A stretch of DNA of 64,000 nt, taken from positions 12,080 through 76,079 of the forward strand of contig JAJTYI010000002.1 of assembly GCA_021463645.1 (NCBI GenBank). Reading direction: 5' to 3'. Positions 43,277 through 62,772 of this stretch are shown piece by piece. Position 1 is the stretch's first letter; each line of letters starts with the position of its first letter. Below the pieces are notes generated by a model, which had not been told where the DNA came from, ran no database searches, and saw nothing but the letters and a program-made list of their open reading frames with translations. Source of the stretch: a bacterium. GTDB lineage: Bacteria > Patescibacteriota > Dojkabacteria > B142 > OLB20. The position numbers and the translations under genes are program-made.

Positions 43277-43284
43277 ATTATTAC

Positions 43285-43520: not shown

Positions 43521-43544
43521 CTCAATTTCTTAAATTCTTCATTT
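43521..43544 (-). repeat. Purine-rich post-stop motif, core copy G
   Basis: The sense strand reads AAATGAAGAATTTAAGAAATTGAG. The TGA inside it is the stop of the 62-aa ORF. Confidence 0.6.
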
Positions 43545-43727
43545 ACTTGAAGGTGGCCAAACAACCGCCTGTAACTTTGGATTATTCAAATCTTTATCTG
43601 TGATGTGTCCTCCCCCACCCGCATCTTCAGCATCTCGCACCTCTGCCAGATTTTCAGCATCCCCTGGAGTAACTTGGAGTCTTTCTCCGTCATAACCTAA
43701 CGGTTTTGGTGTCGGATTAGTTTCCAT
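43539..43727 (-). CDS. Small hypothetical protein (62 aa), more G+C-rich than its surroundings
   Basis: ATG-initiated ORF between two motif copies; no recognised domain. Confidence 0.35.
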   Translation of the reverse strand: METNPTPKPLGYDGERLQVTPGDAENLAEVRDAEDAGGGGHITDKDLNNPKLQAVVWPPSSK

Positions 43728-43732
43728 ATTTT

Positions 43733-43783
43733 TATTTCTTAATATCTTAATTTCTAAATTTCTTCATTTCCACATTCCTGAAA
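43733..43783 (-). repeat. Purine-rich post-stop motif, copy A
   Basis: The sense strand reads ..GGAATGTGGAAATGAAGAAATTTAGAAATTAAGATATTAAGAAAT, starting 5 nt after the stop at 43788. Confidence 0.7.
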
Positions 43784-43787
43784 GTAG

Positions 43788-44777
43788 TTATACCTCACTA
43801 ATAACATCAAAACCTTTGAAACTTCCAGTGATTGCTAAGCCAATTAATTTCCCTTCACATAATCCTTTTCGCTTAATTTGAGCAGCAGTTTCATTTAATG
43901 TTGCACCAGAACCTACAGCATCATCAATTAACAAGATGTTTTTATACTTTTTGTTATCTTCTACAACAATAGTGTGTTTTGCATTTTCTATACGATCTCC
44001 CAATTTACTCAAAGTCTTTTGAGGTACCGATATTTCCGTTTTTATTTTACTTACCTTAAGAATCGGCAAAGGAAGACTTAAATTGCGTTCCAACTCTTTC
44101 ATGAATTGAACTTCTCTTTTTACTGTCGGTGGGATGAATACTATTCCATCAACATCATATCTTTTAACTAGTTGAAGTAATTTGGGGTGGATTTCGTCTG
44201 ATAGAGATTTAATTAATTTTTTATCTTGGCTTTGCTTTGCATACAGTAATAATTGTCCAATCCTAGTTTTTCCAAATCTCTCAATACTATAGAAATCTAT
44301 ATAATATAGTCTGTCAAGATTCACTAAGTTAAAAGTCATCTTAAGTTTATCCAAACCACTGATAAAACCTTTTTGTTTATACTTACTATATTTATCAAGT
44401 GTTTTCACGTATTCTTTTGCTGTTTTAATAGGATTCTGATTTGTTTTTTCACACCACATCACGAACCCCTCCCAACCTTGCTTTTGTTCTCCTCGAGGCG
44501 AGATATACAAATAATTCTTGTCAATTTTATTTTTTACGCTTTTATCAATTACTTCATATTCAAGACCCAATGATTTAGCTTTTCTGTCAGTATCATTTAT
44601 AAGGTAAAATACCTTTGGAGGTTTTCCAACCTTACGTAATTGTCCAGATTCTAGAAGACTTTTAAGCTGTTTTCTAACCGCTCTAGGAGTAATGTCCTGC
44701 AAGTAATCGACCAGCTCTTTTCCACTGGCTTGATTATTTTCACGAATGTATTGAATGATTTTTTCTGAAGTTTTCAT
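43788..44777 (-). CDS. Winged-helix DNA-binding domain fused to a ComF-like phosphoribosyltransferase domain
   Basis: N-terminal wHTH (IIQYIRENNQASGKELVDYLQDITPRAVRKQLKSLLESGQL). C-terminal PRTase loop ILLIDDAVGSGATLNE with ComF-like upstream pattern (..IVFIPPT.., RIENAKHT). Confidence 0.7.
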   Translation of the reverse strand: MKTSEKIIQYIRENNQASGKELVDYLQDITPRAVRKQLKSLLESGQLRKVGKPPKVFYLINDTDRKAKSLGLEYEVIDKSVKNKIDKNYLYISPRGEQKQGWEGFVMWCEKTNQNPIKTAKEYVKTLDKYSKYKQKGFISGLDKLKMTFNLVNLDRLYYIDFYSIERFGKTRIGQLLLYAKQSQDKKLIKSLSDEIHPKLLQLVKRYDVDGIVFIPPTVKREVQFMKELERNLSLPLPILKVSKIKTEISVPQKTLSKLGDRIENAKHTIVVEDNKKYKNILLIDDAVGSGATLNETAAQIKRKGLCEGKLIGLAITGSFKGFDVISEV

Positions 44778-44795
44778 ATTTTATTATAGCAAATA

Positions 44796-44817
44796 AGTTC
44801 CTAGTTCACTAGGAACT
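44796..44817. promoter_or_regulatory. Candidate operator (10-2-10 perfect palindrome) over the promoter of the wHTH-PRTase gene
   Basis: AGTTCCTAGT-TC-ACTAGGAACT lies 19 nt upstream of the ATG and is adjacent to TATAAT on the sense strand. Confidence 0.45.
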
Positions 44818-44865
44818 AGGAACCTTCTTAGTTTTCCATGAAATACGTTTAAACAAGTGTGTGGG

Positions 44866-44904
44866 TTTGAATTTTAAATTTCTTCATATCTAAATCTCTA
44901 CATC
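44866..44904 (-). repeat. Purine-rich post-stop motif, copy B
   Basis: The sense strand reads GATGTAGAGATTTAGATATGAAGAAATTTAAAATTCAAA, after the stop at 44918. Confidence 0.65.
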
Positions 44905-44917
44905 TTTTATCTGGATT

Positions 44918-45502
44918 CTACCTCAAAATCCTCACAAACTCCCCCTCATCGAGTGTCAAAATCGGCAAATCCGGTGATATTTTCTTCAGTAGATTTATTT
45001 TCAATTCTCGTCTTTGTTCAATGTCCCAGTGACACAAGAGATTGATATCTAGTAAACCTATTCCTTTATGTACGTTTTGGTTATCTTGGTAATCGAAAGA
45101 TAGAACATAATGCGAACATACCATAAAAGCTCCCATAGAACCCCCTGCATACGTTTTGCCTTTAAGTTTTTTCTCTAGGTTTGTGAATTATTGGTAGTAG
45201 GGTTCAATCAACTTTGCATCTCCTCCCACAACATATAAAACATCGAATTGATCGATTTTCGCATTAAAGTCATCTACGTCCTCAACAACTTCTACTTCAA
45301 CATTTTTATATGAGTTCTCAGTAATTTTCTTTCTATAACTTTCCTTTTTTACATCCCAAAACTTCTTTTCCACTGCCCATAGGCACAATAGTAATCTAAC
45401 ATTATCTTTACCTGGAACATCCACCATCTCTTTGAAAAATCTTGTATTACTTTTTCTTTTAATTGAGGTATTACCGCCGTGGAGTAGGTATTTTGTGTGC
45501 AT
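44918..45502 (-). pseudogene. Peptidase S51 (dipeptidase E-like) gene interrupted by one in-frame TAA
   Basis: ORFs 45188..45502 and 44918..45136 are in the same frame. The 51-nt gap translates without further stops (..YYQ*FTNLEKKLKGKTYAGGSMGAF..) and restores the GGS nucleophile region. Confidence 0.7.
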
Positions 45503-45593
45503 TGGGTTTTGTTTATTTTGTTAATTATAACAAATGATTAATCTATCCTAAACAGGCAATTATTGATATAATACATATATAGTAGTTTTTAAA

Positions 45594-45851
45594 ATGGCTT
45601 CTGAATTTACGAGTAAAATTAGCGAACTTGCACCTATAGTAGCAATTCCTTTGGGTCTAGCTTTAGTGTATTTCGGGGGAAGATTAATTCACAGATTAAG
45701 TAATTCTGAAGATCCATATATGCAAGGAAGAAACAGATACATTGAATCAGGTGATATTGAAGATTTACACCCGGAAGATGGTATGAGAGAATCACTTAAG
45801 AAGGGAGAAACTTATAAAAGTATGGCACAGGATATTGAAGATAGAAAGTAG
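45594..45851 (+). CDS. Small single-TM protein, unknown function
   Basis: 85 aa, one TM (LAPIVAIPLGLALVYFGG). The only plus-strand gene in this stretch. Confidence 0.4.
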   Translation: MASEFTSKISELAPIVAIPLGLALVYFGGRLIHRLSNSEDPYMQGRNRYIESGDIEDLHPEDGMRESLKKGETYKSMAQDIEDRK

Positions 45852-45890
45852 TTTTTCTTAATTGAATTTCATAAGAGTGAATCCTTTGTT

Positions 45891-45935
45891 CCCTCAATTT
45901 CTTAATATCTACATTCCTAAATCTCTACATTACCC
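45891..45935 (-). repeat. Purine-rich post-stop motif, degenerate copy C
   Basis: The sense strand reads GGGTAATGTAGAGATTTAGGAATGTAGATATTAAGAAATTGAGGG. Confidence 0.6.
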
Positions 45936-45939
45936 TTTT

Positions 45940-46077
45940 TCATTCATTCTGTAATTTCTCTAATTCTTTAATCCTTTTCTCTGCTTCTTTTTCTTTGCGT
46001 TGGATTTCTTTAGGATCATCTGTACTCTTTATCAACTCTACCTTTCCTAATTCGATATCGGTAATGAAGTCTTTCAT
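45940..46077 (-). CDS. Possible 45-aa charged coiled-coil-like peptide (not in the supplied ORF track)
   Basis: The ATG at 46077 to the TGA at 45940 gives MKDFITDIELGKVELIKSTDDPKEIQRKEKEAEKRIKELEKLQNE. The only support is an open frame between two motif copies. Confidence 0.25.
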   Translation of the reverse strand: MKDFITDIELGKVELIKSTDDPKEIQRKEKEAEKRIKELEKLQNE

Positions 46078-46126
46078 GGAATTTGATTAGTTTAAAGTAA
46101 TGTTAATTTTATGCTTTTATTTTTTT

Positions 46127-46174
46127 CTGAATTTTCCTAATCCCTTAATTTCTAAATCTCTTCATTTTCCTCAC
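46127..46174 (-). repeat. Purine-rich post-stop motif, copy D
   Basis: The sense strand reads GTGAGGAAAATGAAGAGATTTAGAAATTAAGGGATTAGGAAAATTCAG, beginning at the stop of the receiver gene. Confidence 0.7.
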
Positions 46175-46665: not shown

Positions 46666-48861
46666 TTATACTATCTTTATTACGTATAGACCAAATCTTG
46701 CTCTTGTCATAGCCTCGTAATTTATCATTTTATCGTCATCCGAGATATTCTTATTGTGTTGGATATAAATGACAATATCTGCTTCTAAACCTTTGTATGC
46801 ATGTACGGTAAAATGATCTATATTCTTAGAAATTTTTAATTGTTCAAGATTTAGTATATCTTTCTCGCTTAGAAACTTTTCAAATCTACGATCAGATAAA
46901 ATTACTGTAGATACATCTTCGGCTTGTTCAATGCCAACTTCTTTTATTAATTCTTGAATCTCTTTAACTACTAGGTTTTTGTTGTTTACATTCAATATGT
47001 CTGTAAAATTCGTGGTTAATATCTTTGAGTAGTCTATAATCCTCATTTCAGGGCAAATGTCTTCAATAAATTGATGTATTCCTAGACTATTTCTGTAATT
47101 ATTAAATAAAAAATAAATATCTAGCTCTTTCAATGTTCGATTCATATCTAAACCTTCACCCAGCCTTCTGTAGTATTCTTCAACAAAATCTCTTCCAAAA
47201 ATATTCTGAGTTTCATCAGCGGCCAAAAGTATGCTACCTTTATCTGTAAGAAATTTATCAAGAATTAATTCGATCCAATTGAATTCAAAGTCTTGTGCCT
47301 CGTCGATAATAATCAAATCATATGTCTTGGCAATTTCTTCTATCGACTCAAGATTTTTTAATTTAAAATCTTCTAGATTTACATTATCTGGGTTTAAACT
47401 CTTATCAAATTGGTGAACATTGAATATTTCAACATTATTAAAATCTCCAACCTGGTTGTGTATATCATCCGCAAGCTTAGAGTTAAAACACAAATATAAG
47501 ATGTTTTCAAAAGAGTCTACACAATTTTGAATGGTTCTAATACAATGATATGTTTTTCCCGTTCCAGGACCACCTATAACTAAAGTATTAAGTTTTATAT
47601 TAAAATAATCTTTCTCTAATTCTGAATTATTTTTTTTATATGTATCCTTTTTAAAACTTTTTATCAACTTATAGTCCTTGTATCCCTTTGTAATTCCTAC
47701 TAACTCTTCAAAAGATCTTTGTATCATGTTTTTATTTAAGTTACTACTACCTCTCTTATTAAATATTTCTTCAACCTTTATTTCTAAATTTTCCGAAGTT
47801 ATGATATTATCATGCATCGACACATCCCCTCTTAGTTCTTCTTTTCTAGGAATCAAAACTGCTGTCTCATATATTAAATTATTCTTAATAGACGGTATTC
47901 TATGCTCTAAAAAATCGATGAGTGCTCTTTTATTTCTTTCCATTTGTTCGAATAGTTTACTCATACTTTCACCACTTTTATATGTAAGACTTCCATCGGA
48001 ACCGATTGTTAACGAACTCTTCACTTCAATAACAATGAATCCTTTGTCTAAATCAAAAAGTATTAAATCTATCTCGCCTAAATAACATTTATTATTTAAT
48101 TTAAAATCGTATGTTTTTGAATAGATTAGTCTATATTTATTTGATTTATCTAACACTTTTTCCTTTAATAAATACAAAGCGTTTGCTTCAGCTCTCCTTC
48201 CTGCATCTTCTCGTGTTGAGTCCGTCGATACTATTAAATCAACTTTATGAGGTATCAAATATTTAGATTCGACTATTTTTCTTTTTACCTTTATTGCTTT
48301 GCTTTCGGCTATCTTCTTATTTTCGATGTGATAATTTTCTATGCCATCCAATTTAGGCTTGTAGTATTTATTGACGAACTCAGGATCTTCCATTTTTAAA
48401 TTTTTAAATTCTTTCTCCATATCTTCCTTCTTATGTTTTTTCACTTCCTGTTTACCTTCTCGGAGTGCACCTTTAAATAAGTTTTTTAAATTTTTTTCAT
48501 CAATATAAAACCCACTAGATTTACTCTTAAAGTATTCATCTAGTAACTTACCTATGGCATAAGTTAAAGAAAATACAGTAGGAATGGTAGTAACAGCACC
48601 AAAGTAAGGGATAAACTTATATAGACCGATGGCTAATTGTTGTGCAAAAACCCCTATACCAACTATCCCCATTAGCTCCTTAATTATTTCTATTAATTCT
48701 TGTTCAGATAAATTTATTCCATGTGACTTTGCAATCTCTCGACCCATGAGAGCCTGTATAGGAGTTAATATAAAAATATCCGCAAATGGTATGGGTTGGA
48801 TAGCTACAATTGCACAGATAGAACTATATTTGATGATTGTGGATTGAGTATGTTTGTACAA
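46666..48861 (-). CDS. DUF697-like hydrophobic N-domain + NERD nuclease-related domain + SF1 (UvrD/AAA_30-like) helicase
   Basis: N-terminus AIVAIQPIPFADIFILTPIQALMGREIA plus a hydrophobic stretch. NERD core GEIDLILFDLDKGFIVIEVKS. Walker A VIGGPGTGKT, Walker B LIIIDEAQD, and C-terminal VHAYKGLEADIVIY..MTRARFGLYVI. Confidence 0.75.
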   Translation of the reverse strand: MYKHTQSTIIKYSSICAIVAIQPIPFADIFILTPIQALMGREIAKSHGINLSEQELIEIIKELMGIVGIGVFAQQLAIGLYKFIPYFGAVTTIPTVFSLTYAIGKLLDEYFKSKSSGFYIDEKNLKNLFKGALREGKQEVKKHKKEDMEKEFKNLKMEDPEFVNKYYKPKLDGIENYHIENKKIAESKAIKVKRKIVESKYLIPHKVDLIVSTDSTREDAGRRAEANALYLLKEKVLDKSNKYRLIYSKTYDFKLNNKCYLGEIDLILFDLDKGFIVIEVKSSLTIGSDGSLTYKSGESMSKLFEQMERNKRALIDFLEHRIPSIKNNLIYETAVLIPRKEELRGDVSMHDNIITSENLEIKVEEIFNKRGSSNLNKNMIQRSFEELVGITKGYKDYKLIKSFKKDTYKKNNSELEKDYFNIKLNTLVIGGPGTGKTYHCIRTIQNCVDSFENILYLCFNSKLADDIHNQVGDFNNVEIFNVHQFDKSLNPDNVNLEDFKLKNLESIEEIAKTYDLIIIDEAQDFEFNWIELILDKFLTDKGSILLAADETQNIFGRDFVEEYYRRLGEGLDMNRTLKELDIYFLFNNYRNSLGIHQFIEDICPEMRIIDYSKILTTNFTDILNVNNKNLVVKEIQELIKEVGIEQAEDVSTVILSDRRFEKFLSEKDILNLEQLKISKNIDHFTVHAYKGLEADIVIYIQHNKNISDDDKMINYEAMTRARFGLYVIKIV

Positions 48862-48890
48862 GATTTAGATATTTAACGTGATTTATTATA

Positions 48891-49826
48891 TTAAAGATCT
48901 CTCGAATTTTCTTCATATTCTTTATCCAGTATAGATTTGCTCTTGACCTTTTCCTTGTTATCGAAAGTTCTCCCAAATGCATCATATTTAGTTTTTGTGT
49001 ACTTATGTATCTTTTCTTTGTTGAAACCTTTTTTATTAAAACCTTCTCTATCATATCCTTGAATGTTGTAACCCTCACGGTCATACTCAGATTGAGTATA
49101 CTTATTGATTCCTTTAATATTAAATTTTCTTTTATCGAATCCTTTTCTATCGTAACCTAGTTTATTGTAACCTTTACTGTCAAAACCCTGACTGTCGAAT
49201 CCATCTTTGTTAAAACCAAATACGTTGAAACCTTCTTTATCATATCCCTCGAAATCAAATCCAAATTCATCAAAATTATTTCCCGTAACAAAATGGTTAC
49301 TTTTTTTGTTAAAACCATCTTTATTAAAACCTTTATGGTCATAGCCATCCTTATCAAAACCTTCTCTGTTATAACCATTTTTATCATAACCTCTTATATT
49401 AAATCCTTTGATATCAAACCCTTTTAGATCATACTTTTGTCTTGTTTTATAATGTAACCCAAATTTATCAAATCCAGATATATTTAAACCATTAATGTCC
49501 CAGACTTCTCCTTTAACTATTTGATCGTAAAAATCTAATATTTTTATATGTTTAGGATATACTTTAGATAATCTAAGTAATTCCTTTTTACTTTCTTCCC
49601 AATTGCCTAATTTCGCCTCTATCAATGCTTTAGCTGTTTTAGAACTGACTAGAAATTTATTTACAAATATTGATTTGTCATTAACTAGTTCTAATTCCGC
49701 AATAATCTCATTAAAAGTTTTCAGAGCTTCTTGGAATTCATTAATCTTATATTGGTGGTAGGCAAGTTTATAGAGTTGAAGGATCAACTCTTCGTCTAAA
49801 TTCTTTTTTGATTCTTTTTTACTCAC
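48891..49826 (-). CDS. TPR-like N-domain followed by about two dozen 5-residue G[FY][DN]xx repeats
   Basis: KGFDIKGFNIRGYDKNGYNREGFDKDGYDHKGFNKDGFNKK, FGFDFEGYDKEGFNVFGFNKDGFDSQGFDSKGYNKLGYDRKGFDKR and EGYNIQGYDREGFNKKGFNKE. The corresponding 15-nt DNA periodicity is visible at 49000-49450. Confidence 0.7.
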   Translation of the reverse strand: MSKKESKKNLDEELILQLYKLAYHQYKINEFQEALKTFNEIIAELELVNDKSIFVNKFLVSSKTAKALIEAKLGNWEESKKELLRLSKVYPKHIKILDFYDQIVKGEVWDINGLNISGFDKFGLHYKTRQKYDLKGFDIKGFNIRGYDKNGYNREGFDKDGYDHKGFNKDGFNKKSNHFVTGNNFDEFGFDFEGYDKEGFNVFGFNKDGFDSQGFDSKGYNKLGYDRKGFDKRKFNIKGINKYTQSEYDREGYNIQGYDREGFNKKGFNKEKIHKYTKTKYDAFGRTFDNKEKVKSKSILDKEYEENSRDL

Positions 49827-49860
49827 GAGAGTTATAAGCTAACCCCTTTTTGAACAAATT

Positions 49861-52593
49861 TTAAATCTTCTTCCATTGTTTCTTAAAATGTTCGACCTTG
49901 ATATATTCATCTAGAACATGAGAGCAGGATTCCCAGTTAAGGGCTTGAACCATTTTTGGATTTTCGTATTTTGATTCAAACGGACTCCTTTCAGGAACTG
50001 CATCTATAATCTTTTTTGCCTTCTCAATGTTATTTTGTGCAATTTCCACCCATACATCTTCAAGGACATCAGGTAATTGACCAAATATGCTTGTTATTGA
50101 TTTTAATCGTTCGGAAAGTATTGAGTGCACACGATCTTCTATTGAGTCTTTGTACCTCATATTATAAATCCATACTTCATCAAAACGTTGGCCAATCCTT
50201 TGGATTCTTCCTTTTCTTTGCTCAAGTCTTGTAGGATTCCACGGCAAGTCAATGTTAATTAATGCTCCAAGCGTTTGTAGGTTTAGTCCCTCACTAGCTG
50301 CATCTGTCCCAAATAGAATTTTTATTTCACCAGTCTTGACCATTTTTTTTAATTCATCCTTTGGACGCTTAACAAATTGTCCATCGATGAACATCCCGGA
50401 TTTATCTCCACCGGCATACAGGCCTATCTTCATGTCGGGGAAAATATTTTGCTTCACAAGTTTTTCGGCAAACCAGTATGCTGTATCAAAATACTGTGAG
50501 AATATTATGCAGCCTCGTTTTGCCCATTCGCTATCTTTAAGTAATTCTACTAATAAATTGAATTTTGGATCTTCATCGATTCGTTCTCGAATAATTGTGA
50601 TAAATTCCTGAAGTGCATTATATGCACTTTTATCAAGTTCAACTGCATCTTGGGGAATTAGTTCATCCTCATATAAATCGTCCTCTTTAGTAAAATCGTT
50701 CACTTTTTCTTCAATAGGCAAATCCGCCCCTTTATGCCCTTTCAATAGTTTCTCTGCAGTTACACTTCCGGCGAACATTGAACTACCAACTCTTTTTAGT
50801 AATAAGGAAGTAATAAATTTGCTATTTCGTTTTGATTTTGCTAGTTCTTGAGAAAATTCTTCTGCTTTTACATAGGCATCCTGTAAATAGGTAGGAAGGA
50901 CTATAGCCTCCGAATCTTTATCCCCAAAAAGCTGGACTTTAATTGGTGCCAAATAAGGTTCGTTTGTTGCAGGATTAATTGTCGTTTCAAGATATTTTCT
51001 TGTTCTCCGAACTATCTTACGAATAAACGGATTATGTTCATCAATGTATTTATCGCTTATTCTTTCAACAATGTTTTTTTGCAAAGGTTCCAACTCATTA
51101 AATGATTTATTCAGAATATGTTCTGAATCTGAAAGCTCAGCTGAGTCTCTTAAAATTCCAATGTTTTGAGGGTCCTCAAAACTATCTGGTAGGGGATTTC
51201 GCATCCAATCAAAAATCTCTTCAACACGATTCAGTTTTAATTCACCTGATAATAATTTCAAAGCCAAGGCTGGATTAGTTTGCCAATGACTGGCATATGA
51301 ACCTAAAATTTTTTCATCTCCCTGACTTAAGATGTTTAATAAGTCCCAAGCTTCAATAGGGTATAGCTGGATAGGAGTAGCTGTACCCATCAAAATATGT
51401 TCAGTTTTTCTGGCAATTTTAAGCAAGTAATTGTAAAGATTATTTGGTAGTGGTTTTTCGTACTCTTTATCCTTTCCTAGATTCTTTCTGCGGGCACGGT
51501 GGCATTCATCTACAATAATAGTATTATATTCAAGATCTAATAAAAGTTTAGAAGCGTCAGTATTTGCTGTAATAATTCCTTGGGAAATAATTCCAATTTT
51601 TCTTGGACATCTTTTTATATCAAGGGTGCTTTTTCCACCAAAAATGTTTTCTGATTCATCAACCCAACATTTACCGTCCCAAACAGCGGAAGGCAATCCC
51701 ATTAATGTATTTAATTCATCTTGCCATTGCCAGCAAAGAGTTTTTGGACAAATTATAAGCACTGGTTTTTCGCTGTGAAGGGATAATACTTGAGCTGATA
51801 AACCAAGCTGGATTGTCTTACCAAGGCCAACCATATCGGCTAATACATATCGGGCTTTAGAACCTGCTAACTGCGTTCGATAAACTAGATCAATAAAATA
51901 CTTTTGATGCTCCCAAAGCCCCAATTGTTGTCTGTAAACAGGTGATTCGACAACTGTTTCCTCCGGTCTAGAAATCCTTTCTATTTGATAAATGATTTTT
52001 CTTTCTGAAATCCTACGAATATCTTCAACTACGAAATCGATAATATTTCTAGCATTTTCGTTATTCCATAAAGCATCAAATTCATTTTGCACCCAGGAAA
52101 CAGCATCGTATGAATCATCTTCCCAAACTAATTCGTAATTTCTTTCCCAACCAGATTGACTCTCATTCATACTCCCCAAAAAAGAGGTTTGTTTCCCGTC
52201 GGGATAAGTAATAACTCCTGCTTTTCCGTGGACAAAACCAAAAACATCATCAGGCAGAACTTTGATCTCCAGTTTTCCCGATCTAATAAGTGCATAAAGC
52301 TTTTCTAATCTGTCCGGGAATTGAATATCCTGTTTCTCAGGTTGGCTTTCACACCAATCTTTTCGGAGTGCGGCTTCAAATGCTTTGATATTTCTAACAT
52401 CATCAATCTGCAAATGTGCATTACAAATTATTCTGATCTTTCCAGTTACCGAGTCTAATGCCTCTCCAGAGATATCAAAAAGCGAAGTGGAGAAATAACC
52501 GGCGATCCTATCGTAACTTTGTGCTCCAGAAAGTTTGGCACTTAGAAGCGAAGTATTTAATTTTTCTCTTCTTGAAGAAAATCTGTTTATCAT
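49861..52593 (-). CDS. PLD-family (HKD) nuclease domain fused to an SNF2-family helicase
   Basis: FVHGKAGVI....FLGSMNES (HxK..GSxN), LADMVGLGKT (motif I), IIVDECHRARR (DExH), GTATPIQ and EQRKGRIQRIGQ (motif VI). Confidence 0.85.
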   Translation of the reverse strand: MINRFSSRREKLNTSLLSAKLSGAQSYDRIAGYFSTSLFDISGEALDSVTGKIRIICNAHLQIDDVRNIKAFEAALRKDWCESQPEKQDIQFPDRLEKLYALIRSGKLEIKVLPDDVFGFVHGKAGVITYPDGKQTSFLGSMNESQSGWERNYELVWEDDSYDAVSWVQNEFDALWNNENARNIIDFVVEDIRRISERKIIYQIERISRPEETVVESPVYRQQLGLWEHQKYFIDLVYRTQLAGSKARYVLADMVGLGKTIQLGLSAQVLSLHSEKPVLIICPKTLCWQWQDELNTLMGLPSAVWDGKCWVDESENIFGGKSTLDIKRCPRKIGIISQGIITANTDASKLLLDLEYNTIIVDECHRARRKNLGKDKEYEKPLPNNLYNYLLKIARKTEHILMGTATPIQLYPIEAWDLLNILSQGDEKILGSYASHWQTNPALALKLLSGELKLNRVEEIFDWMRNPLPDSFEDPQNIGILRDSAELSDSEHILNKSFNELEPLQKNIVERISDKYIDEHNPFIRKIVRRTRKYLETTINPATNEPYLAPIKVQLFGDKDSEAIVLPTYLQDAYVKAEEFSQELAKSKRNSKFITSLLLKRVGSSMFAGSVTAEKLLKGHKGADLPIEEKVNDFTKEDDLYEDELIPQDAVELDKSAYNALQEFITIIRERIDEDPKFNLLVELLKDSEWAKRGCIIFSQYFDTAYWFAEKLVKQNIFPDMKIGLYAGGDKSGMFIDGQFVKRPKDELKKMVKTGEIKILFGTDAASEGLNLQTLGALINIDLPWNPTRLEQRKGRIQRIGQRFDEVWIYNMRYKDSIEDRVHSILSERLKSITSIFGQLPDVLEDVWVEIAQNNIEKAKKIIDAVPERSPFESKYENPKMVQALNWESCSHVLDEYIKVEHFKKQWKKI

Positions 52594-52595
52594 GA

Positions 52596-55496: not shown

Positions 55497-55498
55497 AT

Positions 55499-56074: not shown

Positions 56075-59000
56075 TTCGATCAACTTTGCTCAATGAAATA
56101 TTTTGCGCAGATAAGAACCTTTTAAAAGTTATACCATCTTCAAATGAAATTTTTCTTAATTCTAATGAGATTTCAATTTGGTCATTCTCATCTGCTACGT
56201 TACTTCTTATTTGTGACAAGATTTCTTTAAGCTTTTCCATATTTAAAGACATAGTCTCGGAAAAAGACAAACTAATCCAGTTAATTTTTCCGTTTATATT
56301 AAAGTTAATAGCATATGGCGTAACTTGTGCGTTTGACCTTTGTAATTCTTCTATCATACTATAGGTTTGGTTATTGTCTGATGTTGGTAGTTTTTGTTTA
56401 TAAACAACCGGTTTATGGTCGTCAATAACAAGTGGACCAGTTGTTTGAGGAACAGATATCTCCTCAATGTCACTTTGATCACCATCGATTATTGCAACTA
56501 CCCTTATATATTTTGTGCCATCTGGAATCTGAAATGGAGTATCATAAATCCCACCATTATCTCGGGGATCGCTACTGTCGGTAGTATATTTGATTTGTGC
56601 TCCACAATTCACCTGCAACTCAAGTGCCTGTCCGTCATGACCTTCAATAAATTTATAGGTTATTTTAAGAGGTGCTTTGAATAATTTAACTTCCCCGGTT
56701 TCGTGTTCACCCTTAGAATCTACACAAAGAAAGTAATTTTTATAATCTGTTATTGATAAGAAATCAGGATTTTCTACAAGTTTGGAACTTTGTGTAACAT
56801 TTTCATTTGAATCTAGATAGATTTTATCTCCATATTTTGCGATGACCTTGATAGCAGTCGCCTTAGTATCCTTGTCATAGTCTTTAACTTTGATATCAAT
56901 CCCAGTTGATTCCTTTGGGAAAGGTCCTTTTGAGATATATCCTCCATTATCTCTCCAATGACCTTCTTGTAATGCACTTATTTTCAAATCATCAAGCGCT
57001 CTAGGATGATGCCATGTCCAACGACAATTGCGTGCGGCCCTGTCTTTTAAATCTTCCCAACGTACTTCTGTTTCTGTTTCTCCAAATAACTTTTCTTCCA
57101 CCATTTTTCTGAAATTAGGATTGTTGATTTCGTTTGTAAATTTTCTTTCTTCTATCAGTAAGTTACAAATTTGCTCTTCAGGGTTAAAATCATTTCCTGA
57201 AAATTGGAATTTAATCTCTGCTTCTGCGAGGAAATCGCCACTCTCTTGATTTCGAGGAAAATATATTTTTATAAAAGTCTCTCTTATCGCAGAATTAATA
57301 CTTAGACGAATTTTATCTTGTTTATCAATTGCTTTTTTATACTGTGGATCTGATTCTAAAACGCGGTCAGATAGCATTTGTTCAATAATTGACTTTATAC
57401 CTTTGTACTCTTTAAAAACTTTAGTTAAGTTTTCCCATGTTTGCCTTTCACCGGATAGAAACAAGAATCTGTTTTTGAATGGATGATCGTTCCAATACTC
57501 CATAAGTTCTACCGCTAAACCTGTTTGAATGGTACTAGGTTCTGTTACTAACAAAGTAACATCTTTGGAATTGATTTCTATTTCATCAACTGCGGGGAAA
57601 ACAACAACTTTATGATACACATCTTTCTTTATAGGTTTAAGTTCTTCGTTTAAGTAAGCACGAATCTCTTTTTTTGCACTTTCATCATCAAAACTATCTA
57701 CTAATTCTTTAAGTCTTGCAATAAGGTTTTGCTGGTTTTGGAAGAAAAATTTTCCATCTTTGTCTCTTGCTAAATACCATGCGCCTTGGTCTAAGTGGTC
57801 AATAGCCGTTTTAAGATCAGTCACTTTTGTTTCTGGAGTGACTACATAATCGATAATCTCATTTAGGTGCAGTCCTTTAATACCTCCTGCAGTATTTGAA
57901 AGTGAAGATATTAAAATTAGTTTGGCAACACTACTAACATCGCTAGTTTTTAGATTATCATCAGCAATTTCAGCAATTGAATCACCTTGGTCAGCTATAT
58001 CATGTTTTATAGCACTGACCAAGGTGTCATTCAGCTGTTCGATTGTAGTTCTAATCTTTGGATTGGAGAGGTTTATATTTTGAGGTGCAATTAATTCACC
58101 TTCAAAACTTGAATTGTATAGATCTTGCAACATCATTCTGACTAAGCGAATGACTCCCCTTGTCTGTTGAAAACCTTCGTTCTCTTTAAATCTATGATAT
58201 AGGTTTATAAAAGATGGATGGAATGGATAGGTTTTAATAATTTGAGTATAAATGGTAGTAGGATCAGTGGAGGTTAAACCGTTTTGCTTAGCTTCTTTTA
58301 ATACATCCTGATATTGTCTCGCGACTTTTTCTACTATATCCTTACTTGGTAATTTTTCAAATAGTTTAGTTTTCAAGATTTCTTCTAGGTCTCCGTCTGC
58401 TTTTACAGGGGTAAGATTTAATGAAACCCGATTCAATTCACCTCTGAGATTCTTTAATACTTCTTGAATAAGTTGACTACCTTCAGAGTAGCTACCAGCC
58501 AAGTCTGCAATGACTACCATCACATTAGATAATTCTTTCTGTTTGACAACATTAAATAGATTTGCCAATGCAATCCCCGTAACATTACTTAAGTCTGAGT
58601 TCCCAACACTAACAGCTTTAGCACTTACCAAGTAAGGTGGGAGCTCATCTATCAAAATTAATGTCGGAGCTCCTTTGAGCATTGTTTTCCAGGCTTCATC
58701 CCCTGGAGCTTTATATTGAGGGTTAAAATATTCTTTAAATTGTTCTTCTTTACCCAATTGTTTGGCCAGTTCTCCCCATAAGCCAAGAGGAGAATCGGTT
58801 TGTCTTCCTGAAAAACCAATTACCCTTACTTCACCTTGGAAACAATCTTTACCTAAAAATCTTTCTCTGAATTCTGGATGTTTTGCCAACAATCCTAAAG
58901 TAATCATACTGTGCGTTTTACCACCACCCATGTTTTGAGTTAATTTAACTATCCCTTTATCTTCTTTCCCCTCGAATCTTCCAAATGCCGTCTTTAATAG

Positions 59001-59150
59001 GATATTTATACCGTCTGTAAAATAACTCTCCGCAAAGAATCTCTCTGGCTCAATTTCGTTCTTTAATAGATTTAGGATTTCTAAAACATCGTCCTGGAGA
59101 TTATCATTTAATGCTGACTCTCTCACCTTACAATTTTCTATTAACTTCAT
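56055..59150 (-). CDS. DUF499-type P-loop ATPase (BrxC/PglY-like)
   Basis: ..ESYFTDGINILLKTAFGRFEGK..VKLTQNMGGGKTHSM (Walker A) and PTLILIDELPPY (Walker B); over 1000 aa. Confidence 0.85.
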   Translation of the reverse strand: MKLIENCKVRESALNDNLQDDVLEILNLLKNEIEPERFFAESYFTDGINILLKTAFGRFEGKEDKGIVKLTQNMGGGKTHSMITLGLLAKHPEFRERFLGKDCFQGEVRVIGFSGRQTDSPLGLWGELAKQLGKEEQFKEYFNPQYKAPGDEAWKTMLKGAPTLILIDELPPYLVSAKAVSVGNSDLSNVTGIALANLFNVVKQKELSNVMVVIADLAGSYSEGSQLIQEVLKNLRGELNRVSLNLTPVKADGDLEEILKTKLFEKLPSKDIVEKVARQYQDVLKEAKQNGLTSTDPTTIYTQIIKTYPFHPSFINLYHRFKENEGFQQTRGVIRLVRMMLQDLYNSSFEGELIAPQNINLSNPKIRTTIEQLNDTLVSAIKHDIADQGDSIAEIADDNLKTSDVSSVAKLILISSLSNTAGGIKGLHLNEIIDYVVTPETKVTDLKTAIDHLDQGAWYLARDKDGKFFFQNQQNLIARLKELVDSFDDESAKKEIRAYLNEELKPIKKDVYHKVVVFPAVDEIEINSKDVTLLVTEPSTIQTGLAVELMEYWNDHPFKNRFLFLSGERQTWENLTKVFKEYKGIKSIIEQMLSDRVLESDPQYKKAIDKQDKIRLSINSAIRETFIKIYFPRNQESGDFLAEAEIKFQFSGNDFNPEEQICNLLIEERKFTNEINNPNFRKMVEEKLFGETETEVRWEDLKDRAARNCRWTWHHPRALDDLKISALQEGHWRDNGGYISKGPFPKESTGIDIKVKDYDKDTKATAIKVIAKYGDKIYLDSNENVTQSSKLVENPDFLSITDYKNYFLCVDSKGEHETGEVKLFKAPLKITYKFIEGHDGQALELQVNCGAQIKYTTDSSDPRDNGGIYDTPFQIPDGTKYIRVVAIIDGDQSDIEEISVPQTTGPLVIDDHKPVVYKQKLPTSDNNQTYSMIEELQRSNAQVTPYAINFNINGKINWISLSFSETMSLNMEKLKEILSQIRSNVADENDQIEISLELRKISFEDGITFKRFLSAQNISLSKVDRNDIEQK

Positions 59151-59240
59151 AGTTATTAGTAATTAATTATTATTTTAGTTTCCCAATAAGATTATATATC
59201 AAATTGGATGTATTATATTACATGATGAAATGAATCTACT

Positions 59241-60968
59241 TCATACATCCAAATTCCATACTTTTATAGCATTTTCGTATAGTTCATTTGCTCTTTCTCT
59301 AATATCTGACTCACTCCATGATTCCCTCTGTAAATATTTGCTAAATATTTCAACACCTTGTGCGTATTCCATTAAACCTTTATTTGTCCCTACTCCAGAT
59401 TTCTTGGTTGACCAATCTGCATCTCTTATGGACGAATTCAAATTACTTGTTATTAAGGTGAGGTTACCTAATGTATATAAAATCCTATCCCGCTCTCTTT
59501 TATCCTCTTCCGAAAGAAATGTACTGTCCCAGTTGTTTCTCCACTTCTTTGGTAAAACATGTTCAACGCTATAATCTTTAAAGTTTTTCAACTGAGTTGC
59601 GTTAAAGTTATTTCTTGTAGTTAATTCTATCAAGTACAAAATCCCCTTTGAAAGTTTATTACTCAAGGTAGATTCGGCGAAGCCTTTTGCGACTTCTACA
59701 TCCGATGGCATAAAGTTAATCTTTTCTGATTTATCCTCGATAAATTCAATTAACTTATCTAATGTATTAATTTCTCTATTTATCATCGAGCCATTAAATA
59801 GTTGGTTATAATTTTTATTATTGGTTCTACAAATCAGCCTTCTCATCAAATAGGCTTCTAAATACTTGAATATCCTATTTCTCTCTGTTTCATCTTTAAC
59901 ATTTTTAGTTATATATAGGATATATGGTATTAATGTTGTGGTTTCTAATCCGAATATTAACAAGTTCAGTCTGTCCACATTACTGTCTCTATCAACAAAT
60001 TCCTGAGATATATTTGGGTTAAATGTGTTTTTATATACTTGAGCGTAATCTTTTAACTTTAAAATTAATTCATCCTTATTAATTTTATAATTTGTTATAA
60101 ATTCTTTATAAGAATTGAAAACTGACTCTACTTTGAAAAATCGTTCTTTATCTTCAGAAGTTACATTTAAAGGGGTTTCCTGGATTTTGATAGATAAATA
60201 GGATTGTAAGAACAAATCAATATTAGTCCTTTTTACCCTTCCGGCATTAATCTCCTTCCCCCAGTAAGAAATGATATCATCTTCAGCTTCAAAAATTTCT
60301 TTCCAGTTTTTATTGTATGAATCAATATCTTCGTTAAATAAATAATTTTTGAGTAATTCAGCTGTAGTTAGTGAAACACCTAAAGAGTTAATAGTATCAA
60401 AAATTTGTTGTTCATCCTCTTTCGATTGCAAATCTATGCCTACGAACATGATGTTACTAAGCAGATTATTGTGAGACAATGAATTTTCCTGAATATTATC
60501 GAGAAAGTATTTATAGCACTTGTAAATTCTTTTTTCTTTCGTTTTTTCATCCATCTCATCCATGTCATTGATTTTATCTTTTAGTATTTTTTCAAACAAA
60601 GGTTTATCTATAAAATTGTGTTGTAAAATTAAATTCCCATGATATGAGTGGAAATTGGTTTTGAAATCATCAGGGACACCATTTTTCAGAAAAAGGACTT
60701 TAAAAAATAGGAGTAAAGTAGTTAACCTCTGCTGACCATCAACAATTTCTCTTACATCACGCTCAATCTCATGTGTAGCAGTTTCAATTTGTTTAAAAAT
60801 TACTGAACCCATAAAATATGGTGAATTTGAACGCGAAACATAATCCATGTCCTCAAGGAATCTCTCCCACTGATTAGTATTCCATACATAGGATCTTTGA
60901 AAAAATGGAACCTTAAGTATCGTTCCACGACTCAAAACATCTGATATTTTTCTTTTTCCTGCTTCCAT
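59241..60968 (-). CDS. GmrSD-like DUF262 + DUF1524 protein (type IV restriction-like)
   Basis: FQRSYVWNTNQWERFLEDM and VDGQQRLTT (DUF262/ParB-like). C-terminal EHVLPKKW...LGNLTLITSNLNSSI (His-Me/HNH-like DUF1524). Confidence 0.85.
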   Translation of the reverse strand: MEAGKRKISDVLSRGTILKVPFFQRSYVWNTNQWERFLEDMDYVSRSNSPYFMGSVIFKQIETATHEIERDVREIVDGQQRLTTLLLFFKVLFLKNGVPDDFKTNFHSYHGNLILQHNFIDKPLFEKILKDKINDMDEMDEKTKEKRIYKCYKYFLDNIQENSLSHNNLLSNIMFVGIDLQSKEDEQQIFDTINSLGVSLTTAELLKNYLFNEDIDSYNKNWKEIFEAEDDIISYWGKEINAGRVKRTNIDLFLQSYLSIKIQETPLNVTSEDKERFFKVESVFNSYKEFITNYKINKDELILKLKDYAQVYKNTFNPNISQEFVDRDSNVDRLNLLIFGLETTTLIPYILYITKNVKDETERNRIFKYLEAYLMRRLICRTNNKNYNQLFNGSMINREINTLDKLIEFIEDKSEKINFMPSDVEVAKGFAESTLSNKLSKGILYLIELTTRNNFNATQLKNFKDYSVEHVLPKKWRNNWDSTFLSEEDKRERDRILYTLGNLTLITSNLNSSIRDADWSTKKSGVGTNKGLMEYAQGVEIFSKYLQRESWSESDIRERANELYENAIKVWNLDV

Positions 60969-61040
60969 GATAAATATTTATTAAGTATATTTAATTATGT
61001 TAGAGTATATACTAAACTTTGAATTAACCCCAACAAGCTT

Positions 61041-61150
61041 CCTTCCCAAATATAATTTCCAATCCCAAAATTCCTAAATCTATAAATTTTCCCTCCTCAT
61101 TTCTTAATTCCTCAATCCCTAAATCTCTAAATTCCTCAATTCCTTCACCT
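61041..61150 (-). repeat. Purine-rich post-stop motif, double copy E (overlaps the last codons of the Cas4-like gene)
   Basis: The sense strand reads GGAATTGAGGAATTTAGAGATTTAGGGATTGAGGAATTAAGAAATGAGGAGGGAAAATTTATAGATTTAGGAATTTTGGGATTGGAAATT. Confidence 0.6.
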
Positions 61151-61859
61151 TCCTCTGGTATCCACACCACTCACACCCCTCTGAATACCCCGGAATTTCT
61201 TCACCCATCAAACACCCCTTAATCTCCCTCAACTTCCCCTCTATCCAACTATCATCCCCTATATAGGGAATTACTGAGATTTTGAATTCTAGTTTTGCAT
61301 CGAAGGCTTGTTTGTCTTTGATGCCATTGCAGTAAACAAAGTAGCCAGTATTAGAAACTTCAAAACCATTTCTTCGTAGTAACCATTGATATATTTCCAT
61401 TTGTCTTTTGTAGGACATTTGCCAATCAGCATCGATATTTACCTCATCTTTCTTTGAAGTTGATTTGTAGTCCACTACTATTAATTCTCCTTTTGGATTT
61501 ACCCAAACATCATCCACTGCACCTGCGACCAATAAGTTTGTTTCTTCATGCAAATATTGAACTCCTTGGAAATTCTCTCTCCAGATATCGATATCTTTGT
61601 GAGTGAAAGGAATTGCATCGATTCCATAAGCGGTCATCAGTGGATGGGGGTCGCCTTTGATACGATGGGTATCGAATTCTTGCTTTAATAAGTGGTCAAC
61701 AGCAGAATTTAAACTGAAAGGTGGACCAGATGGTTGTTTGACACCGAGTCTTCTATCCAGATAAAAACAATGCGGACAATTAATGAAGAATTCAATTCCC
61801 GATCTGCTGATTTTGTAAGCTTCGTCTCTCTGTGGATCAAACTGCCCTCGATACGCCAT
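61119..61859 (-). CDS. Cas4/RecB-like PD-(D/E)xK nuclease with four terminal cysteines
   Basis: N-terminal CPHC and C-terminal CEWC. GAVDDVWV (motif II Asp), VVDYKST (DxK) and QMEIYQWLL (QxxxY). Confidence 0.8.
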   Translation of the reverse strand: MAYRGQFDPQRDEAYKISRSGIEFFINCPHCFYLDRRLGVKQPSGPPFSLNSAVDHLLKQEFDTHRIKGDPHPLMTAYGIDAIPFTHKDIDIWRENFQGVQYLHEETNLLVAGAVDDVWVNPKGELIVVDYKSTSKKDEVNIDADWQMSYKRQMEIYQWLLRRNGFEVSNTGYFVYCNGIKDKQAFDAKLEFKISVIPYIGDDSWIEGKLREIKGCLMGEEIPGYSEGCEWCGYQRKVKELRNLEI

Positions 61860-61969
61860 GGTAGTGGTTTCTAGGTTGAAGTTGATTATACTATTAAATT
61901 ATTGCTATGGAAACAAGTTGTAAATATATATGGGAAATAAATTATTTCAATAAATATCTAAGTTTGTTG

Positions 61970-61975
61970 TATAAT
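61970..61975 (+). promoter_or_regulatory. Candidate -10 box (TGTTGTATAATC context)
   Basis: TATAAT lies 25 nt upstream of ATG 62000. It has the same 11-mer context as the tRNA-Gln locus promoter. Confidence 0.4.
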
Positions 61976-61999
61976 CCGAATAATAGTTAGTAATTAAAT

Positions 62000-62272
62000 A
62001 TGCCAGAAGCAGGTCAGGAACAATCAACTCTAGGTGGTCTAGAACCAGGAGATCCATTTAAATTGCTGGGGCCTACTAATCCTATAAGAAGTTACTTAAT
62101 AGGTAATGATGGAATTTCTAGGAATCTTCAGGTTCCTACTCCTTTAGATTCTCAAAGTAACTTGTTCTATGATTCAAAAATTGGTAGCGATAAGGTACTA
62201 GTTCAAGAATCATTAAATGATAGAACATATCAGCACTTACTTTATGCAAAGACACCGATAGAAAGAGTTTGA
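62000..62272 (+). CDS. Hypothetical 90-aa protein
   Basis: ATG ORF with a good upstream -10; more G+C-rich than its surroundings; no recognised motif. Confidence 0.4.
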   Translation: MPEAGQEQSTLGGLEPGDPFKLLGPTNPIRSYLIGNDGISRNLQVPTPLDSQSNLFYDSKIGSDKVLVQESLNDRTYQHLLYAKTPIERV

Positions 62273-62401
62273 CATTACATCTGTTTTAGAGATGAGTAAA
62301 CAATATCTGCATTTTATAATCAAGAGTGTTAGTTTGAGAGAGATCCCCTCCCATCGAGTTTTTAGAATGGATCAGAAGAAAATATAATATGATTTCCGAA
62401 T

Positions 62402-62638
62402 TCAATTTCCTTGCCTTGCGAATGCATTCAATTTATAGTGCGTTGACAATACCCTCGCCACATGACCAGCCATATCTGCAGGTGTGATGTATATAGTAAA
62501 TGGATTGGGATATTCTGTTCTTGAATCCACCTGAGCACTGACATGTGTAACATTATCAATTCCCCTAGCAGCTTTTACAACATGTTCGGGATCCTGATCA
62601 CTTCCATTTGGAATTGTTACTACTACTTCTCCTGGCAT
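62402..62638 (-). CDS. Hypothetical 78-aa protein
   Basis: ATG ORF preceded on its sense strand by TTGCAA..TGATATAAT; no recognised motif. Confidence 0.4.
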   Translation of the reverse strand: MPGEVVVTIPNGSDQDPEHVVKAARGIDNVTHVSAQVDSRTEYPNPFTIYITPADMAGHVARVLSTHYKLNAFARQGN

Positions 62639-62715
62639 TTTATTATGTGTGAAAATTAATAAGCGATTATATCACTTTCATTAAATATTTTTGCAATAAC
62701 TTCCAACAACTCTTA

Positions 62716-62772
62716 CTGAATTTTGAATTCTTAATCTCTTAATTTCTTCATTTCTAAATCTCTACATCTCCC
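62716..62772 (-). repeat. Purine-rich post-stop motif, copy F (best-preserved)
   Basis: The sense strand reads GGGAGATGTAGAGATTTAGAAATGAAGAAATTAAGAGATTAAGAATTCAAAATTCAG, starting immediately after the TAA at 62773. Confidence 0.7.

Follow-up and report, generated by a model that had tools for sequence, protein, structure and literature searches.

Polar arrays of a degenerate octamer beside stop codons in a variable defense island of a Dojkabacteria bacterium

Heterocystous cyanobacteria carry short tandemly repeated repetitive (STRR) heptamers, and REP, BIME and REPIN elements are high-copy repeats, often folding as inverted pairs, that act as substrates of recombination and rearrangement. 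In mosaic phages short "linker" sequences, and at the pilS and vls loci flanking repeats, are the places where homologous exchange resolves, giving mosaics of unrelated modules. Chi and the KOPS/SRS sequences are strand-specific, purine- or G-rich motifs, about 8 nt long, that act in an orientation-dependent way to stimulate or direct machines related to recombination. Furthermore, purine-rich short-unit satellites scattered in the genome have been documented, such as (GATAGRA)n in Chloroflexus and (AGGGGAGT)2 in Mesorhizobium, and a "transposition-like" spread has been raised for them (Subirana & Messeguer 2019, PMC6749651). Here, we analyzed a stretch of 64,000 nt (the window) from a bacterium of the Dojkabacteria (Patescibacteriota; B142; OLB20), a lineage of the Candidate Phyla Radiation (CPR), corresponding to positions 12,080 to 76,079 of the forward strand of contig JAJTYI010000002.1 (assembly GCA_021463645.1). 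Its LepA protein likewise falls in the CPR/Patescibacteria, the best named relatives being Candidatus Dojkabacteria at about 66% identity. The window contains arrays of a degenerate octamer, G-R-R-A-T-T-N-A, most of which lie in a defense island. These arrays belong with the STRR and short-unit satellites in structure, while they resemble REP/REPIN elements in location, and attC sites or phage boundary sequences in role.

Anatomy and position of the octamer arrays

A first-pass annotation of the window had described a recurring purine-rich motif of 45-55 nt. Read on its purine-rich strand, this motif is an imperfect tandem array of three to seven octamer units, in which positions 1, 4, 5, 6 and 8 (G1, A4, T5, T6 and A8) are conserved, positions 2, 3 and 7 vary, and C occurs only 0-2 times per about 50 nt. 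Tandem Repeats Finder reported arrays of period 8 at 18141-18180, 43734-43770, 61106-61144 and 62729-62770, and pattern scans recovered as octamer arrays all the copies listed before, including a diverged one placed at 18139-18183, which turned out to be a five-unit array on the plus strand (18142-18181). A partial tail reported at 33785-33825 was present too (33785-33837, plus strand), albeit only as a degenerate array of about three units with a GAATTC-type tail. In total, the 64 kb hold nine clear arrays and two weak ones, the latter being 33785-33837 and a minus-strand string with three mismatches at 21499-21528. Eight of the clear arrays are located on the minus strand within the 20-kb defense island (43.5-62.8 kb), and one in the core genome (18.1 kb).

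Since the motif is of low complexity, it had been suspected that part of the similarity between its copies was compositional. In the window, the two-unit pattern GRRATTNAGRRATT gave 28 matches with at most one mismatch, compared with 5.8 ± 2.5 in shuffled sequences, and the three-unit pattern gave 31 matches with at most three mismatches, compared with 1.3 ± 1.2 expected and 6 in the highest shuffle. Strict period-8 arrays were found seven times with the real unit and 0.61 times on average with 100 permuted units of the same letters, the rare high-scoring ones among which were near-equivalents of G-R-R-A-T-T-N-A. Because the permuted units scored so far below the real one, the similarity is not compositional, and this suspicion could be dismissed.

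The arrays also have a direction. In this lineage, the 5' end of an island array is a G-rich patch followed by one or two first units in which ATG replaces ATT (ATGTAG or ATGAAG); such ATG-type units open seven of the nine window arrays and nearly all island arrays of related contigs. The body consists of ATT-type units, and the last units tend to GAATTCA(G), so that each array shows a head-body-tail polarity. As with STRR and satellites, several tandem copies of a 7-8-nt unit are dispersed in the non-coding DNA of one genome, and documented examples of those repeats are purine-rich as well. However, the unit described here is degenerate, with mixed variants in a single array, the arrays are polar and start at stop codons in the sense orientation, and they are concentrated at cassette boundaries of a defense island. 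None of these features (degeneracy, polarity, start at stop codons and placement at island boundaries) is mentioned in the accessible part of the satellite survey (PMC6749651).

Every clear array of the window (9/9) was found on the sense strand of the gene that ends beside it, in line with the post-stop placement given in the first-pass annotation, and starts between -33 and +19 nt from the stop codon (6, -7, 9, 19, 9, 2, -33 and 2 nt for the co-oriented upstream genes), while the distance to the next co-oriented start is far more variable (5 to 178 nt). The arrays are thus intergenic or overlap the ends of open reading frames (ORFs) by a few codons. The plus-strand array at 18142-18181, the only clear copy in the core genome according to pattern scans and Tandem Repeats Finder, lies 6 nt past the stop codon of a DsbA/thioredoxin-like gene (17383-18135). 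In the island, all arrays being on the minus strand, the array at 43516-43545 overlaps the stop codon (TAA-ATG) of a 62-aa gene (43539-43727), that at 43733-43778 lies between a phosphoribosyltransferase (PRTase; PsyrT/ShosT-like) gene, whose stop precedes it by 9 nt, and the 62-aa gene, whose ATG follows it after 5 nt, and that at 44868-44908, which has an ATGTAG head, lies 19 nt past the stop of ORF 44918-45136. The array at 45880-45933 is found 9 nt past the stop of a 45-aa gene (45943-46077), and that at 46131-46168 2 nt past the stop of a receiver-like 142-aa gene. Further on, a double array comprises a proximal half (61098-61155), inside which the PD-(D/E)XK (Cas4-like) ORF 61119-61859 ends, and a distal half (61061-61090) detected by pattern scan. 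The array at 62725-62770 lies 2 nt past the stop of an orphan gene for a 380-aa protein (62773-63915) and is conserved in the related contig L250. The degenerate plus-strand array at 33785-33837 begins at the stop codon of a glucoamylase-like gene (31811-33787). The one exception to the sense-strand rule that had been noted, after tRNA-Gln, corresponds to the weak minus-strand string at 21499-21528.

Variable defense island and strain breakpoints

The array-punctuated island (43516-64000), nearly all genes of which are on the minus strand, encodes the PsyrT/ShosT-like PRTase, NERD and UvrD proteins, a PLD-helicase, a DUF1156 methyltransferase, DUF3780 and DUF499 proteins, GmrSD and a PD-(D/E)XK nuclease. 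An array follows 8 of about 17 island genes and 1 of about 40 core genes (Fisher p = 1e-4), which bears out the concentration in the accessory island claimed earlier, and in core regions, both of this species and of relatives, the site after the DsbA-like gene is the only one with an array. Contigs of the same and of closely related strains were obtained by exact-protein look-ups, except for L237 and L240, which came from a metagenome scan with the lineage-specific array head; LepA, the 380-aa protein and the Cas4-like protein had no exact match in such look-ups. The lineage also occurs in the sequencing runs SRR35759025-39, SRR23814899-904 and SRR24941436 and in the JGI data set 3300009868. 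Their comparison revealed one slot (window positions 46666-61859) that holds at least four alternative and unrelated defense contents among closely related strains: (i) in the window, a DUF1156/DUF499/DUF3780/PLD-helicase system together with GmrSD and NERD-UvrD, (ii) in L001, a Type I restriction-modification (RM) system, (iii) in L243, a MazG-like protein and an SLFN-type helicase, and (iv) in L250, an HSDR-like protein, a methyltransferase/S subunit and AAA_13. The replacement in L243 truncates the PD-(D/E)XK gene and the receiver-like gene, and smaller cassettes are also present in some strains and absent from others.

Across strains, the island modules are 97-98% identical, whereas the adjoining core flank (ArsR, thioredoxin, YibE/F) is only 87-90% identical (positions 39463-46133 compared with L001, L004 and L243), and identity switches between the two near hairpin elements at 43368-43410. 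These identities show that modules have passed between diverged backgrounds and indicate that the transfer was recent. No integrase, transposase or other recombinase was found in the island or either of its flanks using Pfam, NCBIfam and PADLOC. In L250, the upstream flank of the island is a divergent transporter gene, and a further array is located between the island and this gene, just past the point equivalent to window position 64000. The 380-aa orphan (62773-63915, minus strand), with which the island starts, had no match in Pfam, NCBIfam, PADLOC, PHROG or PDB, and its AlphaFold model (pLDDT 40.6) was unusable. A single distant homologue (24% identity; L258, 8001-9155) was retrieved among 1.8 billion representatives; its locus has no arrays, and GmrSD and Type I RM genes are found a few genes (about 2.4 kb) further downstream. 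We also noticed that the minus-strand ORFs 44918-45136 (72 aa) and 45188-45502 (104 aa) correspond to one intact 194-aa Peptidase_S51 gene in L243, L237 and L249, this gene being split by a frameshift or stop in the strain of the window.

The breakpoints between the window and the strain contigs, defined as ends of BLAST alignments, amounted to 14 distinct positions. Six of them fall inside arrays, that is, at 43521 (array 43516-43545), at 43771/43779 (array 43733-43778, where L003 carries an insertion of 1.97 kb), at 44880 (array 44868-44908), at 45896 (array 45880-45933), at 46133 (array 46131-46168) and, in L250, at the 5' edge of the double array at 61.1 kb. A seventh one, 44909, is 1 nt outside an array. 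Since arrays account for 4.8% of the compared DNA, the probability of finding at least seven of 14 breakpoints there is 1.5e-6 and, with six, of the order of 1e-5 by our own arithmetic. Two breakpoints, 43368/43410 and 61895, are in other intergenic DNA. The suggestion of the first-pass annotation that the motif marks junctions of shuffled cassettes agrees well with these data, as the arrays punctuate the island in a single polarity and take up six or seven of 14 breakpoints. However, about half of the breakpoints lie elsewhere, so arrays are preferred rather than required or exclusive junctions.

The arrays themselves are chimeric. Their head goes with the upstream gene, being GGAATGTG for the PRTase gene, TAAATGAAGAA for the 62-aa gene and ATGTAGAGAT for the 45-aa gene, while body and tail vary with the downstream module, and in L001 and L240 an array-like tail stands in place of the native 3' end of the Dev_Cell_Death gene, which is intact in L250. 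Furthermore, all arrays of L003, L237, L240, L243 and L250 are on the sense strand of the island, and this polarity is kept by several arrays that adjoin the 5' ends of inverted genes as well as by the one that stands between the promoter of the first island gene and the divergent transporter gene. Because they lie before a promoter or next to the 5' end of an inverted gene, about 5 of the roughly 25 arrays of this lineage cannot be the 3' untranslated region (UTR) of the adjacent gene, and a polarity independent of the local gene weighs in favor of a property of the DNA or of the island as a whole.

Unit numbers change by gain and loss between strains and between relatives. At the DsbA-like core gene, eight strain contigs share one identical array, and we therefore rejected the idea of a hypervariable simple sequence repeat or of phase variation. 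At the orthologous site of a relative with 77% LepA identity, there is a diverged array of heptamer type (GGATTCA GTATTAA GAGTTTA GAATTCA GTATTTA), and in another relative the next gene abuts the DsbA-like gene with no array between them. In a single case, the comparison of the window with L240, whose flanks are about 80% identical, conservation of the array that follows the 45-aa gene equals or exceeds that of the coding DNA beside it.

The island shares several features with integrons, namely mostly co-oriented cassettes, each with a recombination-prone site in fixed orientation, some cassettes with inverted genes, and sites that are chimeric between neighboring cassettes. It differs from them in that inverted repeats are missing from the arrays, crossovers take place at varying points and the cassettes have promoter-like sites of their own. 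Neither an IntI integrase nor attI/Pc was found (Pfam, NCBIfam and PADLOC; the flank in L250 being a transporter gene), and no attC-like hairpin was seen on folding (z from -0.9 to +0.85) and no inverted partners in the window, which led us to reject an integron. Short sequences at module borders are also typical of phage linkers and of pilS/vls repeats. Those, however, are unique conserved stretches rather than tandem octamer arrays, and the modules exchanged here are whole defense systems in a chromosomal island of a CPR bacterium.

Hairpins, reading frames and the octamer in other phyla

Hairpins lie 3' of the arrays at 18.1, 33.8, 43.5 and 44.9 kb, the first three of which had already been reported to follow the motif. 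They include a canonical intrinsic-terminator-like hairpin with a T-run (18184-18210, plus strand) directly after the 18.1-kb array (fold z = -3.09, driven by the hairpin), a terminator-like hairpin (44795-44825, minus strand) that separates the 44.9-kb array from the promoter-like TTGCTATAAT of the PRTase gene, and an element of the type TTTCCC..GGGAA-TCTCTC at 43.49 and 33.83 kb, the former (TTTCCCC..GGGTATCTCTC; 43484-43511, minus strand) directly after the 43.5-kb array. Among eight array regions folded, z ranged from -0.9 to +0.85 unless a terminator was included, i.e. the arrays fold no better than shuffled sequences, and their reported lack of internal inverted symmetry was confirmed. 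In Rfam 15, only two tRNAs were matched at the gathering threshold and no family matched the arrays, and a permissive scan of 43.3-46.4 kb gave just chance-level matches to eukaryotic snoRNAs and miRNAs. Accordingly, we rejected a structured RNA, since the eight regions have no fold beyond the downstream hairpins, and an intrinsic terminator, since the hairpins lie after the arrays and not in them. A type III toxin-antitoxin RNA (ToxI-like, with repeats of about 34-40 nt before an endoribonuclease toxin) was rejected as well, for the period here is 8 nt and the arrays follow genes of many kinds.

The hairpins of the type TTTCCC(C)-loop-GGG(G)AA followed by TCTCTC (GAGAGATYCC on the other strand) form a second repeat family, with sites at 33828-33990, 43360-43511 and 62338-62347 of the window and at 7215-7255 of L250. 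They often stand directly after an octamer array and are REP-like or terminator-like in appearance; the core GAGAGATYCC alone is not above chance in the window (10 matches compared with 6.4 expected). No Shine-Dalgarno sequence was seen upstream of any of 43 starts examined, so readings of that kind do not apply to this organism, and an array of multiple Shine-Dalgarno sites or a ribosome tether was dismissed. TATAAT-like hexamers are often found 4-30 nt before the ATG at gene starts (e.g. 44777, 45502, 62638 and 63915), which, together with the lack of Shine-Dalgarno sequences, suggests leaderless mRNAs or very short leaders in this CPR lineage. Two other repeats were noticed in the window. 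A 170-bp unit is present 2.1 times (92% match) at 21476-21834, beginning in the 3' end of tRNA-Gln(CTG) (21417-21487) and containing the weak minus-strand string mentioned above, and may be the duplicated scar of an integration close to the tRNA gene. A 19-bp unit, AAACTGTCACTCCTGCGAC, is present 2.9 times at 39421-39476, in the spacer between genes 38968-39369 and 39566-40279.

The four six-codon frames reported in the first-pass annotation (MKKFRN, MKRFRN, MKKLRD and MKNLRN, each closed by a stop codon) exist as described, while other arrays give M-stop, MWK-stop, a 12-codon ORF or none. Their peptide is nevertheless dictated by the octamer. With ATG at unit positions 4-6, the following codons are N-A-G, R-R-A, T-T-N, A-G-R, R-A-T and T-N-A, the last of which is a stop if N is A or G, and a T at N in the first unit reduces the ORF to ATG-TAG. 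Since the consensus thus fixes both peptide and stop, and only four of nine copies have the six-codon frame, the mini-ORF offers no independent evidence of coding and does not stand as a feature of its own. The changes between copies (K/R, F/L and N/D) are non-synonymous and fall at the degenerate R and N positions, and no frame is kept beyond what the nucleotide motif explains, lengths being 1-12 codons or nil, as would not be expected of a translated small ORF. On a metagenome contig of 47% GC (L238; PVBE010549488.1, 2040-2274 and 3271-3446), we observed arrays of 9-22 units of GAAATGTA on both strands, each unit containing a start-stop pair ATG-TAG, i.e. the ATG-type octamer variant expanded alone.

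An exact scan for four units, with one genome per species, gave more than 119 loci; the figures for bacteria outside this lineage given here and below refer to the matches listed. Four-unit arrays were present in many phyla at GC contents of 32-73%. About half of the titled matches were Desulfobacterota-type metagenome-assembled genomes (MAGs), followed in frequency by Chloroflexota, Planctomycetota and Bacteroidota. As perfect repeats, however, such arrays are not exceptional, since in viral contigs a permuted control unit gave 44 loci and the real unit 29, and we dropped the claim that they occur far above chance in other genomes. What sets the real pattern apart is its mixed-unit composition: at least two different GRRATT variants within the four units were present in 61 of 123 bacterial and 13 of 30 viral arrays, whereas nearly all control arrays were uniform (1 of 44 mixed). 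With the seeds masked, the listed loci held 25 more arrays, compared with about 6 for permuted units. Groups of phage contigs sharing arrays were near-identical to one another.

For unpaired arrays, crude ORF-based gene calls placed a co-oriented gene upstream in 61 cases compared with 33, with a median gap of 6 nt between stop codon and array and with 45 of 104 within 30 nt, and many upstream ORFs extend into the array by a few codons (…GIEGLRD-stop). An inverted partner 1-60 nt downstream was found for 71 of 175 arrays, always with the purine arm first (71 vs. 0), and the two arms are separate arrays that do not complement each other exactly. These external arrays thus resemble REP/BIME/REPIN elements in being extragenic repeats of 3' flanks, many with an inverted partner. 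By contrast with those elements, a single array is not palindromic, there are no inverted pairs in the window and the arms of the external pairs are inexact complements. We found on folding neither the palindromic unit nor the hairpin doublet of REP/REPIN in the window, which spoke against this assignment, and no RAYT (TnpA_REP) transposase was seen in the 64-kb window and the short related contigs, which represent part of the genome. In seven Desulfobacterales-type MAGs (L012, L041, L102, L112, L071, L095 and L108), convergent array pairs of different species have a similar spacer, aaaatcaRtaRaataccttc, suggesting a conserved composite element or mobile unit in this clade. A search of the searchable literature by sequence strings and descriptive terms returned no description of the octamer, and we found no account of a degenerate octamer with mixed units, of such arrays following stop codons in many phyla, of the purine arm always coming first or of the octamer bounding swappable defense modules in a CPR bacterium.

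Possible roles of the arrays

In our view, the arrays are best read as a boundary repeat acting at the DNA level, and as neither a structured RNA nor a coding mini-ORF. More specifically, we tentatively favor, with a probability of about 0.45, a dispersed polar family of short-unit repeats (STRR/REP-like) that bounds modules and serves as a preferred, non-exclusive substrate of crossovers. Each boundary would provide 30-60 bp of quasi-repetitive, register-tolerant sequence in the same orientation, and like sequence at every boundary would supply stretches of (micro)homology. Recombination, be it homologous or homology-facilitated, from strain to strain or with DNA arriving from outside, would then preferentially resolve in the arrays, and modules could be inserted, deleted or replaced with ORFs left unbroken. 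A crossover into the 3' end of a gene would cost only a few C-terminal residues, since the sense-strand arrays are stop-rich, C-poor and unstructured. While the anatomy, polarity, island enrichment and chimeric make-up of the arrays and the excess of breakpoints were observed, we infer both the recombination pathway and a causal part of the arrays in the crossovers, as opposed to their lying where crossovers are tolerated.

Several observations weigh against such a crossover substrate. About 40 bp at about 80% identity is short for RecA-dependent recombination, and the arrays make up 26% of the compared intergenic DNA, so that, conditional on breakpoints being intergenic, their enrichment is marginal (P = 0.04). 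The 14 breakpoints are also not fully independent, and among those outside arrays, 44784 and 45513 lie at a promoter-like TATTTGYTATAA or TATAAT region, while 45835, 46353 and 61698 are inside genes. Moreover, L240, which is without one of the cassettes, keeps both flanking arrays intact in tandem instead of one hybrid, contrary to simple array-by-array homologous deletion. Finally, the arrays of other phyla, among the matches listed, follow ordinary housekeeping genes, and the tight link to stop codons in the window also fits a role at the RNA level.

Such a role was proposed in the first-pass annotation as a 3'-UTR or intercistronic element. In one form of it, single-stranded (GRRAUUNA)n would be a linear platform for binding or cleavage between stop codon and terminator, each unit presumably fitting the RNase E-type consensus R-N↓W-U-U; in another, a C-free unstructured spacer would insulate translation, termination and Rho loading. 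The proposal suits the window, where all nine arrays follow a co-oriented stop codon, several are succeeded by terminator-like hairpins and all are poor in C and unstructured, and it could also account for the conserved positions of the unit, for the excess of co-oriented upstream genes in other phyla and for the purine-first order of inverted pairs. It does not fit the fifth or so of lineage arrays that keep their polarity beside the 5' ends of inverted genes or upstream of a promoter, nor the rarity of arrays after core genes of the same genome, and it has no support from Rfam or from Shine-Dalgarno usage. A three-frame "universal stop" module was rejected in the same context, because a stop in every frame occurs in only four of nine window arrays and 73 of 123 external seeds, and there is no avoidance of C at the N position. 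On balance, we consider an RNA-level element rather unlikely. A control by mini-ORFs, in which translated ATG-initiated frames of 1-7 codons would couple or uncouple the expression of neighboring genes, appears very improbable. The frequency of ATG-type first units, the ATGs that overlap or abut the upstream stop (TAAATG, ATGA) and the A-rich unstructured leaders in an organism without Shine-Dalgarno use are compatible with it, but peptide and stop follow entirely from the octamer consensus, variation is non-synonymous, the frames range from 1 to 12 codons, the copy at 18.1 kb has no ATG, and listed arrays of other phyla have no consistent one.

The arrays could also be a neutral or selfish by-product of slippage or self-copying, kept where harmless, that is, past stop codons in the sense orientation, where their own stops cap any intrusion, in which case the link to breakpoints would be incidental. 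This is what one may suspect from the abundance of perfect octamer repeats of another arrangement in viral contigs, the upstream ORFs running a few codons into arrays, the gain and loss of units, and the purine-rich short-unit satellite families documented in bacteria (PMC6749651). However, unit heterogeneity is found exactly at the R and N positions and is nearly lacking in control arrays, which is not what plain slippage predicts, eight contigs carry an identical array after the DsbA-like gene, and a head-body-tail order with a single polarity over about 25 arrays is unexpected from drift. We thus regard a neutral origin as unlikely. At the other extreme, the arrays might be a dedicated orientation-dependent recombination signal, either att sites of an unrecognized recombinase, as in integrons, or Chi-like clusters read by a polar translocase or nuclease. 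The unit has the size of known Chi sequences and is likewise rich in G and purines, the cassettes are co-oriented with a site at their 3' end, one array stands at the very start of the island, and crossovers cluster just past the ATG-type head at three junctions; the Chi-like version in particular draws its support indirectly, from the strict polarity and the enrichment of breakpoints. Chi and KOPS/SRS are, though, single well-defined dispersed sequences, whereas these are degenerate tandem arrays next to stop codons. Furthermore, neither island nor flanks contain a recombinase, the 380-aa orphan has no recognizable fold or family and its sole distant homologue is in an array-free locus, attC-like symmetry is missing, the crossover position is not fixed, some junctions are at promoters or inside genes, and the cassettes have their own promoter-like sites. 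A dedicated signal is therefore quite improbable in our estimate. A broader scheme, in which (GRRATTNA)n is at once an unrecognized selected stop-codon signal across phyla and, in CPR bacteria, an orientation-dependent attachment site or hotspot of an integrase-less defense-cassette platform, a counterpart of the integron run by a polar machine (a Chi-reading nuclease/helicase or an unrecognized recombinase), strikes us as improbable.

These findings have several implications. Conserved short "mini-ORFs" within short-period repeats call for caution, because they can be mere by-products of the period. The regularity with which mixed-unit arrays of the octamer follow stop codons across phyla, with the purine arm strictly first in inverted pairs, suggests either one mutational or mobility process behind all of them or a function in common at the RNA level. 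If the arrays are indeed a preferred crossover substrate, this would explain how whole defense systems rotate through one chromosomal slot in a reduced CPR genome without integrase, transposase or prophage. Such repeats would then add a mechanism for the assembly and turnover of defense islands, and would provide a simple sequence marker for variable cassettes in metagenomes.

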